From positions 930,001-994,000 of the forward strand of contig CM026547.1 of assembly GCA_014905635.1 (NCBI GenBank): 64,000 nt of DNA. The letters are read 5' to 3'. This DNA comes from Scenedesmus sp. PABB004. Lineage: Eukaryota. Every line of letters begins with the position of its first letter. The stretch's first letter is position 1. Under the pieces are notes generated by a model. It saw nothing but the letters and a program-made list of their open reading frames with translations. It had not been told where the DNA came from and made no database searches. The translations under genes were made by a program, and so were the position numbers. Shown here piece after piece: positions 6,377-30,649 of this stretch.

Positions 6377-6717
6377 GCCGAGCGACGGTGTGGCGCGTGG
6401 AGCGGTCGCGCTGCCGAGCGGTCGCGGCGCGGCGCGGAGGCCCGTGGGTGTGTTTGGAGGAGCGGCCCTGACGGCTCAGCGCCACGGCGCGCCGTGAATG
6501 AAGGCCCGATTGGGGGTTGGGCCCTGCGCCTGCTCCGCTGCCGCTCCGCCTCGTTCAGCGCGGGCAAGCCCCTGGCTGCCCCAGCCCGCGGCAGGAAGCA
6601 CCCGCGGTGCCCGGCCCACACGCACGCTGCGGCGCGGCGGCCGCGCCCGCAGCCGCCGCGCCCGCAGCCGCCGCCGGCCGCCGGCCGCTGCCGCCGCGCC
6701 GCGCGGCCGCCGCAGCC

Positions 6718-8245
6718 ATGTCGTTGTCAGGGGGCTTCCGCAAGCAGCAGAAGCGGCGGCGGTGGTGCGATCAGGGGCTGCTCGTGCCGGACGCCTTCCG
6801 CGCCGAGGTGCGGCGGCGGCTGGCGCGCCAGGCGGCGGCTGGGGGCGGCTCGCGTGCGGGGCGCGCCGCCCCCTGCCCGCCCAGCGCCGCGCCGCCGGGC
6901 CCGAGCCGCCGCCGCGACACACCCACCGCCACCGCCGCCGCGACGCACCCGCCGCGCCGCGCCGCGCAGCTCGAGGCGGCGGCCGCGCCGGGGGCCGCCG
7001 CCGCCGGCGCCGACCCGCAGCTCGCCGCGCTCGCGCGCGCGCTGCTGGCGCTCGCGGGCGTGCAGTTCACGTACGGCGAGGTGGAGGCGCTCAAGGCGCC
7101 GCTCGCGGCGGCCGAGGCGCTCGCGCGCGCCGCGCCGGCCGACGGACCGGCGTGGCGCGCCGGCGCGGCGCTGCTGCTGGAGGTGCTGCTGCTCGGCAAC
7201 TCGCGCCCGCTGCACCGCCAGCTGCTCTCGGCGCTGCGCCGCCTGCCGCCGGGCCACCAGGCGGCGGCGGGCGAGCTGCTGGGCGCGCGCGTCGCGGCTG
7301 AGGCGGCGGGCGTGCTGGCCGCGGCGCGCGGCGCCGACGCCGCGCGGCGCGCGGGCGGCGCGGCGGCGCCGCTGCCGCGGCTGCCGGCGTGCGCGGCGCG
7401 GCGCGGGCTGGTGCTCGCGCAGGCGGGCGTGTCGCTGCTGTGGCTGCCGGCCGCGAGCGCGTGGCTGCGGCCCGCGGCGGCGCCGCTGCTCGCGGCCGTC
7501 GCGGCGGCGGTCGCGGCGACGCTCGGCGGCGGGCACGCCGGCGGGTGCGGCGATGACGCGCCCACGCGGCACCTCACGCCCGCCGACATGGAGGCGGCGC
7601 AGGACGCGGTCAGCCTGATGTATTACACGCTGCAGCACCACGGCGCGGCCCTGGCGGCGAGCGCAGAGGGCGCCGACGCGGTCGAGGCCGCGGCGCGCGC
7701 CGCGCTCGCCGCGCTGCAGGGCGGCGCGCTCGCGCGCGAGTCGCTCAGCTCCGCCGCGGTCGTGGTCTGGGCGGCGGCCGCGCTGCCCGCCGCGCCGCCG
7801 GCGGCCGCGGCGGCCGCGCTCATGGCGGGGCTCGCGCCGGAGACGCTGCCGCCCGGCGCCGCCGCCGCGATGGCGGGCGCCGACGGCGGCGCCGGCGCGC
7901 CGCCGTGCGCGCGCGTCGCGGCGCTCGCGGCCGCGTGGGCGGGCGGCAGCCTCGTGGAGGCGCGCCTGCGCGCCGGCGGCAGCAGCCTCGCCGCCGAGCT
8001 CGCGGCCGCGCCGGCCGTGGCGCGGCTGTGCGCCATGAAGGGCCTGCTCACAGCGATGCCCCCCGACGCGCTCGCGGCCGACCTGGGTGGCGCCGGCAGC
8101 AGCACGGTGCTCATGCGCTGCGTGCTGCCCTTCGCGGTGGCGTCCGCGGGCGCCTCGCCGGACGCGCACTTCAAGCTGCATGCCATGTCTGTGCTGGCGC
8201 TCGCGCTGGACCGCGCTAAGGCGGTGTGGGAGGAGGTGGTGGACC

Positions 8246-8278
<33 letters not shown>

Positions 8279-11200
8279 TGGGGCAGCAGCTGGAGCAGCA
8301 GGCAGAGCAGCACCAGGCATCAGGCGAGCAGGAGTCAGAGCAGCAGCGGGGCCAGCGGCAACAGCGGGACCAGCTCGCGCCGCCCTGGCTGGGCGGGCGC
8401 GAGCTCGCCGGCGTCGTGGGCCTGCTGTGGGTCCACCTGGACGAGCCCATGGCGGCGACGCTGGCCAAGGTCCACGACGCGTTTGAGGCCCTGCTGGAGC
8501 TGCTGGTCTGCCAGGACCAGGCGGCCGCGCAGCTGGGCCTCGCAGCGCTGGCGCTCGACGGCGGCGGTGCCGGCGGCGCCGGCGGCGGCGACGCGTGCGG
8601 CGCGTGCGGCGCGGGCAGCGTGCTGGGCGTTGGCGCCTGGCGCGACGCGCGGGGCTTCCTCGAGGCTGCCGCCGCGGCCGTGCTGGGCATGCCGCAGGGC
8701 CGGAAGGGCCGCTACGCGCCGCTCGGCGCGCTGCTGCGCCGGCTCGGAGCGGGCCACCTGCTGCGCGCCGCGCCGGGGCTGGTGCGGCAGACGCTGGCCG
8801 CGATGCAGGACGACATGGTCGCCAACTCGGCGGCGAGCTTCTTCAGGGCCCTGCTGCTGCAGCTGCGCCGCGAGCTGCCGGAGCAGCCGGGCGCGCAGCA
8901 GGGCGCGCAGGCGCGCGCGCTGCTGGCGCTCGTGCCGGACCCGGAGCTGCGGCGCTGGTGCGCGTGGTGGCTGCCGCCGCTGCTCGACGTGCTGTGGGGC
9001 CCGGGCGAGCGCCTCCGCGGGTACGTGGCCAACCACGCACTCCCGGTGGCGCTGCAGCAGGAGGCGGCGCTGCTGCGGCCGATGGTGGCCATGGTGCTCG
9101 CGGCGCACGCTGGCGCGCTCGACGGCGGCGCGCCGCCGCCCAACGCCACGGCGGCGCTCGTCGTGGTGCTCAAGGTGGCGCGCAAGCTGCAGCTCGTGGG
9201 CAACCTGGACGCGCTGCTCGGCGCGGCGGAGCTGGGCGAGCTGCGCGCGGCGCTGGCCGCGCCCGGCGACGACGTGCCGGCAGCGGCCGCGGACGGCGGC
9301 GCCGCCGCCGACGGCGCGCTTGCGGCCGCGTCGCCCGCGGAGCTGCTGCTGGCGGCGGTGTCGTCGTCCTCGGCGGCGCTGCGCATCGAGGCGCTGGAGC
9401 TCGCCTGCATCAACGCGCGGTGAGCGGGCTGCGCGTGCTGCGCGGGCTGCGCGCGCGTGTGCGCGTGCGCGTGTGTGCGTGTGCAGCGGCTGCCGCCCGT
9501 GAGCGAGCCAATGAGGAACCTTGGAAGCTGGAATCCGACATGGGCCCTGCGCCCGCTGCGGACAAACAACCCTGCTCAGTCTGAGGCTCCCGGTGGTGGC
9601 GGTCGTGTGGTTCCGTGTGTGCTGCGGCGTGCGCAGACAGTGCTCGCTGTTGCTGCCGCTTGCCAATGAGGAACTTGGAAGCTGGAATCCGAGACGGGCC
9701 CAGCGCCCGCTGCGGACAAACAACCCTGCTCAGTCTGAGGCTCCCGGGTGCTGTTGCTGTTGCGGTTGCTGCGGCGCGCCGCGCGGCCAGGGAGGATCAT
9801 TCATTACCAATCCTTTTACCGAAGCGTAGCGGCCCCGCGCCGTCTGCCGAGAAACCACTGCTGAGGCCTGCGCGCGCGTGCTGCGTGCTGCGTGCTGCTG
9901 CGTGCCGTGTGCGCCGCGCGCTTCGTCGGCCGCCGCCTGACGCCCGACACCCCCCCCCCCCCGTGCGCAGCTCCACTGAGGCCCCGGGCGTGCTGGAGCT
10001 CGCCATCGCGCGCCGCTGGCTGGTGCTCTGCCTGCGCTGCACGGGCGCCAACAGCCGCAGCAAGTGCCTCGTCACGCTTGAGAAGCTGATCACCCGCCAG
10101 CGCGCCGCGGTGCACGCGATCCAGCACCGCGCCGCCAACGCGCGCAAGCCCGGCGCCACGGGTGCGCGGCGGCGCGCCAGGCACCCGCAGCCCCGGCGGC
10201 GCGGCGCGCCCCGCCGCGCCGCTCGCGCCCCGCCACGGAGCCTGCCAAGCCCGCGCCCTGCCCGCGTCCGGCCGCAGGCGGCGCGCACCCGGGGGCCTGG
10301 CCAAGGCCGGCCCCAACCTGCTCGGCCCCGGCGGCGCGCCGGCGGCGAGCGAGCCCGAGGCGCTGGCCCTGCAGTGCGCCTGGCTGCGCTGGGTGAGCCA
10401 GGCGCTCGTCGACAGCCTCTATCCGGGTGGGCCCTACGAGCGAAAGTACTTTGCCCTGGAGCTGCTGGCCCAGTTGCTGCAGGCGTGGGCGCCGAGCAGC
10501 GACGACGCGGCGCGCGCGGCCCGCCGCGGCGGCGCCGGCACCGGCGCTGGCGCGCACGCGATGCCGCTGTGCGACGCACTGATGTCGCCGGACGCGGTCC
10601 AGGTGCTGCTGGGCTGCCTGGTGGACTCGTGGGACAAGCTGCGCATGGCGGCGGCGCGGTGAGGCTGCAGCTCAGCCGCAGCCGCGCGTGCTCGCGCTGG
10701 GTCGCCCGCCCCGCCCCGCGCCGGCGCCGCCTCACCCCGCGCCGCCTCGCCCGCCGCGCAGCGTGCTTGAGCTGCTGCCGTCGCCGCTGCCGGGCCTCGA
10801 GACGCCGGCGCGCGTCACGCCGCTGCTGGAGTGGGCGGCGCAGCTGCTGGCGAGCCCGCGCATGCGCGAGAGCGACGCCGGCGCGCGCCTGCTGCGCCTG
10901 CTGTGCACCAAGTATCTCCTGGGCATGCGCTGGCGCCTCACGCTGCACGCGGCGCCGCTCGCGGCCGGCCCGCCGATCGGCGGCGGCGTCGAGGGCGCAG
11001 CGGCGGCGCAGAACGGCGGCGCACGGGACGGCGGCGGCGAGCTGCCGGCGTCGGTGCTGGTGGACCTGCTCGCCGGCCTCACCGCGCAGCTGCGCGCGGG
11101 GCTGGCGCTCGCGCGGGCCGACCTGCCCGCCGCGTGCCGGCGCGGCCTGGTGCACGGCACTGTGCTGGCGCTGCGCTACCTCACTGAAGACGTGCCGTGG

Positions 11201-14200
11201 TCCAAGCTCGCCGCGTGCGGCGGCGCCGCCACCGCCGTCGTGAGCGCCGCGGCAGCGGGCGACGTCTGCGACGCGCAGCCCGCGGGCGGCGGCGGCGCGC
11301 TGGTGGCCGTGAGCGGGCCGGTGCCGGCCGTGCTGCGGGCGTGGCTGGCCGACCTGCTGCTGCAGCTGGGCGAGGTGGCGGAGCTGGTGCGGCCGCAGCT
11401 GTGCGCGCAGGACATCAACGTCGCCGCCGATGAGGTGGAGGAGGAGGGCGACGGCGAGGGCGACGGCGAGCCCGTGAGCGACGAGGGCGACGAGGGCGAC
11501 GAGCCGGAGCAGGGCGGCGGCGCGGGCGACGGCAGCGGCGGCGGCGGCGGCCTGCTGATGGGCCCGGCGGTGCAGCTGCTGACGACTGGGTGCTGGACCA
11601 GCTTCAAGGAGGCCTCCCTCCTCATCGGCACGCTGGCGCGCCGGCTGCCGCTGCCGGGCGAGGGCGGCGGTGGCGGCGTGATCGAGCTGCTGCAGGCGGC
11701 GCAGCTCGCCGCCGGCGGCGACACGCTGCTCGCGCTGCTGCTGAGCGCGAAGCACAACGGCGCGGTGGACAAGAGCCAGCCCGGATTCATTGCGCTCGCG
11801 CAGCGCCTGCTGCAGAGCGGCGCGCCGGCGCTCAACGCGCTGCCCGCGGGCTGGCTGTCGCGCTGCCTCGCGCGTGTGAGCGAGCCGGGGCAGTGCCGCG
11901 ACGACATCGTCCGCCGCTCGTCGGGTGCGGGCCCCGCGCTGCCGCCGCGCCACGGCGCCGGCGCGCCGCCGCCACCTTCCCCGCGCTGCGCGTGCGAGGC
12001 CGCCGGCTCACGCTGCTGCTGCGCGCGCGCGTCGCAGGCCTGCCGTTTGCGGTGTGCGCACTGTTCCTGGCCGAGCCGTCGGGCGTGCCGCGCGTGCTGC
12101 TGCCGTCGGGCCTCACGCAGCTGCTCGCGGTCGCGGACGACGCGTCGCTGCCAGAGCCCTGGCCACGGGTGCGCGCGCCGCGCCGCGCGCCGCGCCCGCT
12201 GCGCAGCCCGCCCTCGCGCGGCGCGCGGCGCGCCGACGCGGCGCGCGGCGCGCCGACGCGGCGCGCGGCGCGCCGACGCGCCGCCGCCCCGCCTCTGCCC
12301 CGCCGCCGCGGCTGCGGGCCTCTCAGGTCCACGCGTTTAACGTGCTGCGCGCCGTCTTCAACGACGCGTCCATGGCGCTCGACACTAGCGGCTTCCACGC
12401 GGACGGCGTGGCCGCGGCGATCCGGGGCATGGACGCCCCCGCGTGGGAGGTGCGCGCACTGGCGGGGGCGGGCGCGTCGCCTCGCCCGCGCCGCGTGCCC
12501 GGCGCGCGCCGCCGGCGCCGACGCGCGCGCGCCGACCGCGCCGCCACCGCCGCCGCAGGTGCGCAACGCCGCAGCGCTCGCGTTCACGGCGCTCGTGATG
12601 CGCGTGGTCGGCTACCGCAACGCCGGCAACAAGGCGCAGCGCGTCAGGCCGCTCGCGCAGCTCGCGGCGGCGCCGCCCGGCGCGCACCTGCGCCTCGGCG
12701 GCGGCGCGTCAGCGCCGCCGCCGCCGCCGCCGGGCGCGGGCGGCGGCTGGTGCGTCAAGTCGCCGACCGCCGCCGACTTCTTCGCGCGCTACCCGCGCCT
12801 CCACAGCTTCCTGCTTGGCCAGCTGCGCGCCGCGGCCGCCGCGCTGGCGGGCGGCGCGGGCGGGCGCGGCGGCGGCGAGGCCCCGGCCAGCCTCTTCCCC
12901 GTCATGGTCATCCTCTCGCGCCTCAAGCCGGCGCTGCTGCGCGGCGGCCTCGCCGCCGGCGCGGCGCCCGGCGACGGGGCGGACGGCGACGAGGGCGGCG
13001 GCGGCGACGAGGGCGGCGGCGACGCGCTCACGCCCGGCGCGCTCGTCCCCGCGGTGCTGGCGGTGGGGCGCTCGGCGCCCATGGGCGTGCGGCAGATCGC
13101 CGCCGCGTCGCTCGCGCCGCTGGTGGCGGCCGACGCGCTGGAGGCGACGTGCGCGGCGCTGGCGGCGGAGCTGCCCCGCGACCGCGGCGCTGCCGCGGCG
13201 CTCGAGCACAACGTGCTGCACGGCGTGCTGCTGCAGCTGTGCGCGCTCCTGGCGGCACTCGCGAGCAGCGGCGGCGGCGGCGCTGCCGGCGACGCGTGGC
13301 GTGCGCAGGCTGCGGTGCTGGTCGCGCAGCTGCTGCCTGCGCTCGCGGGCGCCGCGTGGCTTGCAGGCAGCGCCGACTGCAGCAGCGCAGTGCGGCAGGC
13401 CTACCTCGCGGTGGCGGCGCAGCTGGTCATGCTGGCGCACGGCGCATGGCCGCAGCTGCTGGCGCTGGACGGCGGCGCCGCGGCGCAGCAGCTGCGCCGG
13501 CTCATGGCGGAGCTGGCGGCCGCGTGCGAGGCGGAGCTGCAGCGCACCGTGCCGGCGGCGCGCGGCGAGGCGGCGCCGCCGGCCGCCGCGGAGGCGGCCG
13601 ACCCGCAGCACTGCTGCCTGCTGCGCGACGCCGCGGCGCTGCTGCTTGGGCCGCTGCTGCGCGTGCGGCTGCTTGCGGAGCTGCAGGCGCAGCAGCAGCA
13701 GGGCGGCCCGGGGCCGCAGCAGGAGCCATTTGGCAGCGTGGACGCGGGCGCCTTTGTGCAGCGCCTGCTCGCCGAGCTGGTGGCGGCGCTGCCGCTGTGC
13801 GTCGACAGCGCCTCGTACGAGGTGCGCGGCGCGGCGCTCAAGGCGGCAGCGGTGCAGCTGGGGCAGGCCCGCGCGCTCGTCGCGGCGGCGCCGGGCCTGG
13901 CGCAGCTGCCGGGCGTGCCGGCCGCGCTGGCGGCGCTGGCGGCGGCGCTGTGGGCGGCGCTTGAGCGCGAGCCCAGCGTCAAGGTCACCAAACGCCTGCT
14001 TGCGGCGCTGGGCGAGCTCCAGCAGCTGCAGGCGGGCGGCGGCAGCGTGCAGCCGCAGCGCCTGGCCGCGGCGCTCGCGGTCGCGGCGCGGTGCAGGCAG
14101 GCCGAGGTGCGCGTCGCGGCGCTCGGCTGCGCAGCGCGCGAGGCGCGGCCGGCGGTCGCTGCGGCGGCCGCCGGCGGCGCGCCGCAGCAGCAGCAGCAGC

Positions 14201-26821: not shown

Positions 26822-30649
<3,828 letters not shown>

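Follow-up and report, generated by a model that had tools for sequence, protein, structure and literature searches.

The first intron of the THADA gene in the green alga Scenedesmus sp. PABB004 contains three similar units, which are predicted to form a tandem cluster of three genes for small nucleolar RNAs (snoRNAs) of the box C/D class, with a probability of about 0.75. The gene lies within positions 930,001 to 994,000 of contig CM026547.1 (assembly GCA_014905635.1). This stretch of 64,000 nucleotides (nt) is referred to below as the window, and counts on both strands cover 128 kb. Judged from its sequence, the cluster is most likely real but fairly ordinary, and of a known kind, the intronic snoRNA clusters of green algae. 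Two of the units carry, adjoining box D', the 10-nt guide core AAGCTGGAAT of snoRNAs that are hosted by THADA in other green algae.

Three units of one layout in a THADA intron

The units are about 85-93 nt each and have their boxes on the sense strand only. All share a terminal stem, a C-like box, box D' CCGA, a hairpin, box C' CTGC(G/C)GA and box D CTGA, in this order. The intron and its units are as follows (bp, base pairs).

9420..9970, + strand: first THADA intron, 551 nt, GTGAGC...CAG, with GT at 9420-21 and AG at 9969-70; hosts the three units.
9505..9589, + strand: unit 1; box C ATGAGGA 9511-17; D' guide 9518-34; box D' CCGA 9535-38; hairpin GGGC..GCCC; box C' CTGCGGA 9556-62; D guide 9563-80; box D CTGA 9581-84; terminal stem GAGCC/GGCTC, 5 bp.
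9659..9743, + strand: unit 2, tandem paralogue of unit 1; box C ATGAGGA 9666-72; box D' CCGA 9689-92; box C' CTGCGGA 9710-16; box D CTGA 9735-38; terminal stem GCC/GGC.
9781..9873, + strand: unit 3; box C GGGAGGA 9790-96; AT-rich D' guide 9797-9818; box D' CCGA 9819-22; box C' CTGCCGA 9844-50; short D guide 9851-60; box D CTGA 9861-64; terminal stem GCGCGGCC/GGCC-T-GCGC, that is, GGCC/GGCC of 4 bp and 4 more (GCGC) past a 1-nt bulge.

Box D CTGA, box D' CCGA and box C' are thus kept in three of three units, and each has a terminal stem, although that of unit 2 is of 3 bp only, which counts against its being a snoRNA. Units 1 and 2 are 96% identical in a 74-nt block and 100% identical in a 13-nt block. 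This identity is limited to an RNA-sized block of 86-87 nt, since that of the flanks is 0.20 upstream and 0.40 downstream. The two units have identical D guides, and a single-base deletion separates their D' guides. A three-way alignment shows conservation of the boxes and of the internal hairpin core GGCCCnGCGCC, with different guides in unit 3, whose short D guide resembles that of unit 1 minus the final six bases. A scaffold that is kept while the guides change appears to be the pattern of duplicated snoRNA genes.

An earlier note, made from the same DNA, had described a 551-nt intron that is longer than its neighbours, within THADA, with three units of one layout, two of them tandem paralogues with identical guides. 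The boundaries of the intron are exact, its neighbours measure about 100-165 nt (as gaps between tblastn segments), and the host gene, the layout and the paralogy were all confirmed. The identity of the guides holds for the D guides and fails for the D' guides.

Such a layout is rarely met in the window. A relaxed search for the C...D arrangement, with 4 bp or more required in the terminal stem, gave two occurrences in 128 kb, both in this intron, against a mean of 0.1 in 30 dinucleotide shuffles. The scaffold GAGGA-N-CCGA-N-CTGCSGA occurs three times in the window, where 0.03 are expected, and none of 100 shuffles reached three. It is therefore hardly credible that the units are a chance resemblance, or an intronic repeat that acts as a splicing or transcriptional element and not as RNA: layout and scaffold are at 20-100 times the shuffle expectation in this intron only, the boxes respect the sense strand, and the guide core is common to the THADA-hosted snoRNAs of other algae. 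In favour of such an origin, short stems come easily in GC-rich sequence, and the fold energies of the units are no better than those of shuffles (sense-strand z-scores of 0.06 to 0.34), which also speaks against a snoRNA cluster. Unremarkable fold stability is, however, usual for box C/D snoRNAs, and this evidence is neutral.

Base composition also sets the units apart. The GC content of the window is 0.79 overall and 0.74-0.84 per 2 kb, which is unusually high for a eukaryote; it is 0.76 in the intron outside the units, 0.61-0.63 in the units, and 0.27-0.50 in the guides, with 0.27 in the D' guide of unit 3. Two of the 25 islands with a GC content of at most 0.47 (30-nt windows) in the 64 kb are units 2 and 3. 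This suggests that the units are under constraint, since AT-rich stretches persist in so GC-rich a genome. Elsewhere, one low-GC island is adjoined by a long (GT)n microsatellite at 28800-28880.

The host gene, THADA/Trm732 on the + strand, was identified by a Pfam search of the window. PF10350 (DUF2428) scores 93.4 bits and PF25151 scores 34.6 bits (cut-off 27 for both), while PF25150, at 23.9 bits, is under its cut-off of 27. The DUF2428 domain and the tetratricopeptide repeat (TPR) regions of Trm732 place the gene in the THADA family. Its best protein relatives in a large protein search are green-algal DUF2428 proteins of Sanguina aurantia and [Myrmecia] bisecta, with 36-38% identity. The exons that bear on the intron are the following.

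6718..9419, + strand: THADA exon 1, with ATG at 6718; a long open frame that stops 2 nt into a codon, within the open reading frame 6502..9423.
9971..10160, + strand: THADA exon 2, end approximate; residues 833-896 of homologue P0003 align to 9966-10157.
11348..11926, + strand: part of a later THADA exon, encoding the DUF2428 domain (PF10350, E=1.9e-26, residues 176-368 of the 10823-11977 translation).

The intron leaves the reading frame intact, with the codon CG|C split between exons 1 and 2, and alignments to THADA homologues flank it, at 7969-9216 and 9966-10157. Within exon 1, tblastn aligned residues 1-25 of homologue P0002 to 6724-6798, and homologues P0003 and P0004 to 7969-9219.

Box variants and the kink-turn

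None of the C boxes has the canonical sequence RUGAUGA. ATGAGGA, in units 1 and 2, departs from it at one position and GGGAGGA, in unit 3, at two; this weighs against functional snoRNAs. All three boxes retain GA at positions 3-4 and G at position 6, and the GA dinucleotides and D boxes are intact in every unit. With pairs assigned from the sequence by standard kink-turn (k-turn) nomenclature, AUGAGGA and CUGA keep the tandem G.A pairs and the 4b:4n G-C pair, and the 3b:3n pair is G.U instead of U.U, because position 5 of the C box is G. The earlier note had proposed non-canonical boxes in which the G.A pairs are preserved, and this reading is borne out in all three units. The box of unit 3 is the most deviant, with G also at position 2, the place of the flipped-out U. 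A U at this position matters for binding of the 15.5K protein. PMC5689011 describes both the 3b:3n U:U and the 4b:4n G:C as strongly conserved in human box C/D RNAs, and the former is a further point against the units.

The C-box region of unit 3, GGGAGGAU (9790-9797), can pair with AUCCUUUU of its guide (9811-9818) in a helix of 7-8 bp, which RNAfold draws in both the minimum free energy and the centroid structures. In this model the box mimics the predicted ribosomal RNA (rRNA) target through G.U pairs, which may be a coincidence or a way for the guide to mask itself.

The box ATGAGGA is not new. For two snoRNAs of Ostreococcus tauri, Ot-CDsno123 and Ot-CDsno124, the published sequences show ATGAGGA in the position of box C (PMC7671301; the reading of the box is ours and not that of the authors), and Ot-CDsno123, which ends in a CTGA D box, was detected at 116-564 transcripts per million (TPM). 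The authors of that study permitted one mismatch to the box consensus. The two RNAs differ from the units of the window in their unrelated guides and in their intergenic cluster. By our own reading, the printed sequence of Ot-CDsno122 appears to contain GCGAGGA.

A structural analogy, and only that, is offered by the k-turn of the 5' stem-loop of U4 small nuclear RNA (snRNA), which has AAUGAGG on the bulged strand and a Watson-Crick or wobble pair, not U.U, after two G.A pairs; the Arabidopsis sequence reads UAAUGAGG...CCGAGG (PMC8583080 supplement). In contrast to the units, U4 is a spliceosomal RNA and has no guide or D box. A likeness to another snRNA was noticed by eye: the internal hairpin of unit 1, CAUGGGCCCUGCGC (9539-9553), is near-identical in sense to CAUGGCCCCUGCGC of Arabidopsis U6, and that of unit 2 is less similar. 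This is probably a coincidence in GC-rich sequence.

Sequence families do not recognise the units. Rfam gave no match at gathering score anywhere in the window, and at E<=10 the intron matched snoTBR2, symR and snoU83B only (E of 4.9-7.4), with no SNORD65. That standard finders might overlook the units had been foreseen in the earlier note; the result is nevertheless a point against snoRNA genes.

Relatives hosted by THADA in other green algae

Fifty-nine THADA loci were taken from metagenome contigs by way of an alignment of the DUF2428 region of the window with four homologues. A blind scan of these loci for the C/D layout gave 13 matches, of which 7 are a snoRNA of the SNORD65 type, and a motif search added 5 further loci. 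This snoRNA, of 104-105 nt, is therefore present in 12 of the 59 loci, in 7 distinct sequences. It has a canonical or near-canonical box C and the guide (A)GCTGGAATTACC; the guide stretch (A)AGCUGGAAUUACC is followed by CUGA or CUCA. Its terminal stem and internal hairpin covary: in three pairs both partners have changed, and 97% of cells are paired. The snoRNA is on the THADA strand, and the DUF2428 match follows 2.7-4.0 kb downstream of it. All eight loci examined have an N-terminal NSRPLHR exon upstream of the snoRNA and the next THADA exon downstream, and in one of them (L060) GTAAGC, a branch-like CTAAC site and CAG surround it. It follows from these flanking exons and splice-like signals that the snoRNA is intronic in THADA.

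Targets were sought in stand-in ribosomal DNAs (rDNAs), four eukaryotic contaminant contigs from prokaryote assemblies that were found by an 18S primer and verified with Rfam, and in the Arabidopsis 18S and 25S sequences from the PMC8583080 supplement, which also supply the numbering; sites follow the fifth-nucleotide rule. The guide of the algal THADA snoRNA is an exact 13-nt complement of the small subunit (SSU) rRNA in four of the four rDNAs, and its register selects the U of GGUAAUUCC, known as Um582 in Arabidopsis, Um578 in yeast and Um627 in human. Its match to SNORD65 of Rfam is weak (20.8 bits, E=0.025, gathering score 41). It closely resembles Ot-CDsno89 as printed in the supplement of PMC7671301. 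The latter is an rRNA guide of 114 nt and an orthologue of snR77, detected at 642-2250 TPM and listed as intergenic, at 282529-282644 of chromosome 10; it is recorded for five of six Mamiellophyceae, and the columns for Trebouxiophyceae and Chlorophyceae lack it.

Units 1 and 2 resemble the lineage of SNORD65, snR77 and AtsnoR77Y (Rfam clan CL00057), with its algal THADA homologues, in their C/D layout and in a position in a sense-strand THADA intron. They also have in common with it the stretch AAGCUGGAAU of the D' guide, which is the complement of the GGUAAUUCCAGCU region in 18S. The differences are substantial. RNAs of this type are 104-114 nt long, with a mostly canonical box AUGAUGA or GUGAUGA, whereas the two units are of 85 nt with AUGAGGA. 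Their guides pair over 12-13 bp in register for U582 (Arabidopsis), U578 (yeast) or U627 (human), whereas the guide of the units pairs over 9 bp, in register for C588. The algal homologues have the covarying internal hairpin with an AUGG loop and lie in an N-terminal intron of THADA, unlike the units, which lie in a mid-protein intron.

The change of register has a simple basis. The guide of units 1 and 2 is 6 nt shorter, without the 3' UACCNU of the homologues, and the box follows directly after GGAAU, so the predicted target moves from U582 to C588. The identity of a 10-mer by chance among the few guides compared has, by a rough estimate made without a script, a probability well below 0.001. 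Units 1 and 2 would thus descend from a THADA-hosted snoRNA of the SNORD65/snR77 type, because the same 10-nt core stands beside box D', the host gene is the same, and chance is unlikely.

Several results stand against this descent, or against snoRNAs in the window. The family guide AGCUGGAAUUACC, in register for U627/U578/U582, is absent from units 1 and 2, which keep only AAGCUGGAAU, and the units reach neither the Rfam gathering score of SNORD65 nor recognition by a model of the homologues. The latter, covariance model R1, was built from the 7 distinct algal THADA-hosted snoRNAs. It gave no match in the window with default filters, and with filters off it matched the window only at E>=0.8, with 1.6 bits (E=2.3) for unit 1. 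The genomic context is shared as far as the host gene (12 metagenome loci), and the intron differs: the other algae have the snoRNA intron at about residue 165 of P0003, and the intron here, where the N-terminal part of THADA is one exon, is at about 820. The THADA gene of two loci, L050 and L051 (GC content 0.68-0.70), runs as one open frame for over 2100 codons, with neither an intron at the snoRNA site nor the snoRNA. These two belong to the other 22 loci in the group of the 12 bearers, the rest of which end short of the snoRNA region on the upstream side. In the lineage of L050 and L051 the hosted snoRNA has thus either moved elsewhere or been lost with its intron.

The conservation in relatives to which the earlier note had looked is present as far as the guide core is concerned, which is kept in a SNORD65/snR77-type snoRNA within THADA introns of other algae. 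The region of the orthologous intron contains no C/D-like unit in seven THADA loci (L082, L083, L091, L094, L096, L097 and L102), another point against the cluster. Among 30 loci, no motif of the guides g1, g2 or g3 (respectively the D' and D guides of units 1 and 2, and the D' guide of unit 3) was found in a snoRNA context, the two matches lying in coding or GC-rich sequence. An exact-pattern search of metagenome contigs for snoRNAs of the unit 1 type gave no match.

The main rival explanation is that the units are decaying relics: an ancestral THADA-hosted snoRNA of the SNORD65 type would have been duplicated and would now be eroding under GC pressure, with no stable small nucleolar ribonucleoproteins (snoRNPs) and no guiding. 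This would account for C boxes that have left the consensus in all three units (twice over in unit 3), for the shortened D' guide and the loss of the conserved U582 register, for the short stem of unit 2, for the failure of both Rfam and the covariance model, and for predicted sites of which none is a known 2'-O-methylation (Nm) site in the parts of the published maps available. Erosion fits poorly with guides that remain AT-rich in a sequence of 0.79 GC, with two units 96-100% alike over exactly an RNA-sized block between unalignable flanks, with D boxes and GA dinucleotides intact in every unit, and with the presence of ATGAGGA in expressed Ostreococcus snoRNAs. Decay is thus unlikely, and a cluster of snoRNA genes is preferred.

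THADA of other algae varies in further respects. In one SNORD65-type copy (L070:3201-3305, identical in L071 and L073; contig GC content 0.68), box C is AUGACGA and box D is CCGA. Both partners of 3b:3n have thereby gone from U.U to C.C, possibly a coordinated change at the k-turn position occupied by G.U in the window. In a third group of loci, with a GC content of about 0.50, THADA carries a different, canonical C/D snoRNA (L094:1272-1356, + strand; L087:982-1053; L088:518-589), with AUGAUGA ... CUGA and the stem UUGCA/UGCAA. It lies between matches to N-terminal THADA exons (residues 130-192, at 786-974, on one side and 334-387, at 2232-2384, on the other). The D guide of this RNA is an 11-nt exact complement to the SSU of one stand-in rDNA, L042 (AAAGTTTTTGG), and its Rfam matches, to SNORD36, snoR72 and sR1, are weak. 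As this RNA is distinct, THADA hosts snoRNAs of different kinds in different green lineages. No paper on THADA as a snoRNA host gene was among the literature matches listed. Chen and co-workers are said to have described in 2008, in Genetics, several snoRNAs within one intron of a protein-coding host in Chlamydomonas, as in the window.

Predicted targets and a possible history

Of the guides in the window, g1 forms 9 Watson-Crick pairs with 18S AUUCCAGCU, in register for C588, and 4 more are possible past a 1-nt bulge in the guide. For g2, the large subunit (LSU) of L042 offers 9 Watson-Crick bp and one G.U in register, and Arabidopsis 25S CCUGAGCGGGGU offers, by eye, 10 Watson-Crick bp and one G.U, which points to about A836. 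The fit is to 25S CCUGAGC(A/G)GGGU, a stretch that is variable among eukaryotes; if it is correct, the LSU of the alga would be CCUGAGCAGGGU(U) where Arabidopsis has CCUGAGCGGGGU. With 11 Watson-Crick bp, g3 pairs with LSU GAAAAGGAUUGG in L038, L042, L047 and Arabidopsis, which points to about A1937. A search of viral contigs for the LSU pattern gave no match.

The rRNA complementarity, taken alone, is weak to moderate evidence. The pairing of g2 and g3 in register with the boxes counts for snoRNA genes, and that of g1 counts against them, since equally good pairing was obtained by 87-120 of 400 shuffled g1 guides, at a length of only 9 bp. Among 400 shuffles of g2, 28 did as well on L042, and 225-288 on the remaining three rDNAs; for g3 the number was 4-19 of 400, with 10-19 on L038, L042 and L047. 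Also against the cluster, antisense rDNA gives runs of similar length, and the fourth guide, g4, found no target on the stand-in rDNAs or Arabidopsis rRNA. The three predicted sites are absent from Table 1 of PMC8583080, in the portion that takes in every 18S site, and the 25S sites to 2410, with their yeast and human equivalents. Its 25S entries pass directly from Am826 to Am885 and from Um1892 to Um2114, and Um582 is the sole entry in the 18S region concerned. Nor do the sites figure in the main text of a second Arabidopsis map (PMC8053127). No guide like g2 or g3 is found in the O. tauri (PMC7671301) or plant snoRNA family supplements, within partial text in which line breaks may split strings, and a literature search by sequence strings gave nothing relevant.

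Two discrepancies were noted in the Arabidopsis sequences of the PMC8583080 supplement. Line 12 of the printed 18S shows GGTAATTCCACTCC against GGTAATTCCAGCTCC in the four stand-in rDNAs, with one G apparently missing, and around 826-1892 the printed 25S lags by one position relative to the numbering of Table 1.

Other RNAs were considered as targets. Arabidopsis U1, U2, U4, U5, U6, U6atac and U12 gave no match by eye. A tRNA target was prompted by the role of the host: by eye, g1 resembles the anticodon loop of tRNA-Gly(UCC); it misfits the anticodon stem, its register would be that of position 29, and a tRNA target was rejected. No tRNA gene lies within the window.

These observations bear on the proposal that the units are real k-turn RNAs that are orphan or non-methylating, acting as chaperones of pre-rRNA folding or on tRNA or snRNA targets, with a fortuitous rRNA complementarity. 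Such a role is improbable, more so than decay. It would suit the weak shuffle tests (about 0.25 for g1, 0.07 at best for g2 and 0.01-0.05 for g3), sites that are not known Nm sites in the published parts seen, and a C' box that lacks the second GA needed for a k-loop and can, on folding, form Watson-Crick pairs with D'. It is opposed by the core of g1, which is the guide of SNORD65-type methylation guides in THADA elsewhere, and by the want of a tRNA gene in the window or of an snRNA match by eye among those of Arabidopsis.

On the preferred reading, a snoRNA gene cluster, the three units would be transcribed within the THADA pre-mRNA and, by analogy with other intronic snoRNAs, released by exonucleolytic trimming to a snoRNP formed on the terminal stem and the C/D k-turn. 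We infer their expression, snoRNP assembly and methylation from the sequence. Units 1 and 2 would be diverged members of the SNORD65/snR77/Ot-CDsno89 lineage that other green algae keep in THADA. Their D' guide would have kept AAGCUGGAAU against 18S AUUCCAGCU and lost the 3' UACC part, hence C588 and not U582, while their D guide would be directed to 25S at about A836. Unit 3 would have arisen by duplication and gained a new D' guide, which fits 25S GAAAAGGAUUGG at about A1937.

A wider scenario is possible, if rather doubtful. THADA, the partner of the tRNA 2'-O-methyltransferase Trm7, may be a host, both ancient and recurrent, of guides for rRNA 2'-O-methylation in Chlorophyta. Here, a guide would have been duplicated, with the copies on a k-turn with G.U at 3b:3n, and a truncation of 6 nt would have retargeted it from the universally conserved 18S Um582 to C588, beside the 530 loop of the decoding centre, with sister copies gaining two 25S sites. 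There is no sign in these data of a coupling of tRNA and rRNA methylation, and the linkage of THADA with snoRNAs is a curiosity rather than a mechanism.

As far as the sequences compared indicate, what the cluster adds is the recurrent host relationship of THADA and a guide that seems truncated and re-registered. More broadly, several lineages of green algae have THADA as a host of C/D snoRNAs. If expressed, the units would be lineage-specific methylation guides in a green alga without close sequenced relatives (best THADA identity 38%), and they would show that the C box tolerates G at position 5 and even at position 2, which is relevant to the snoRNA finders that missed them. Should the wider scenario be true, the intron would offer a snapshot of the birth of methylation sites by guide slippage and duplication within a conserved host gene.

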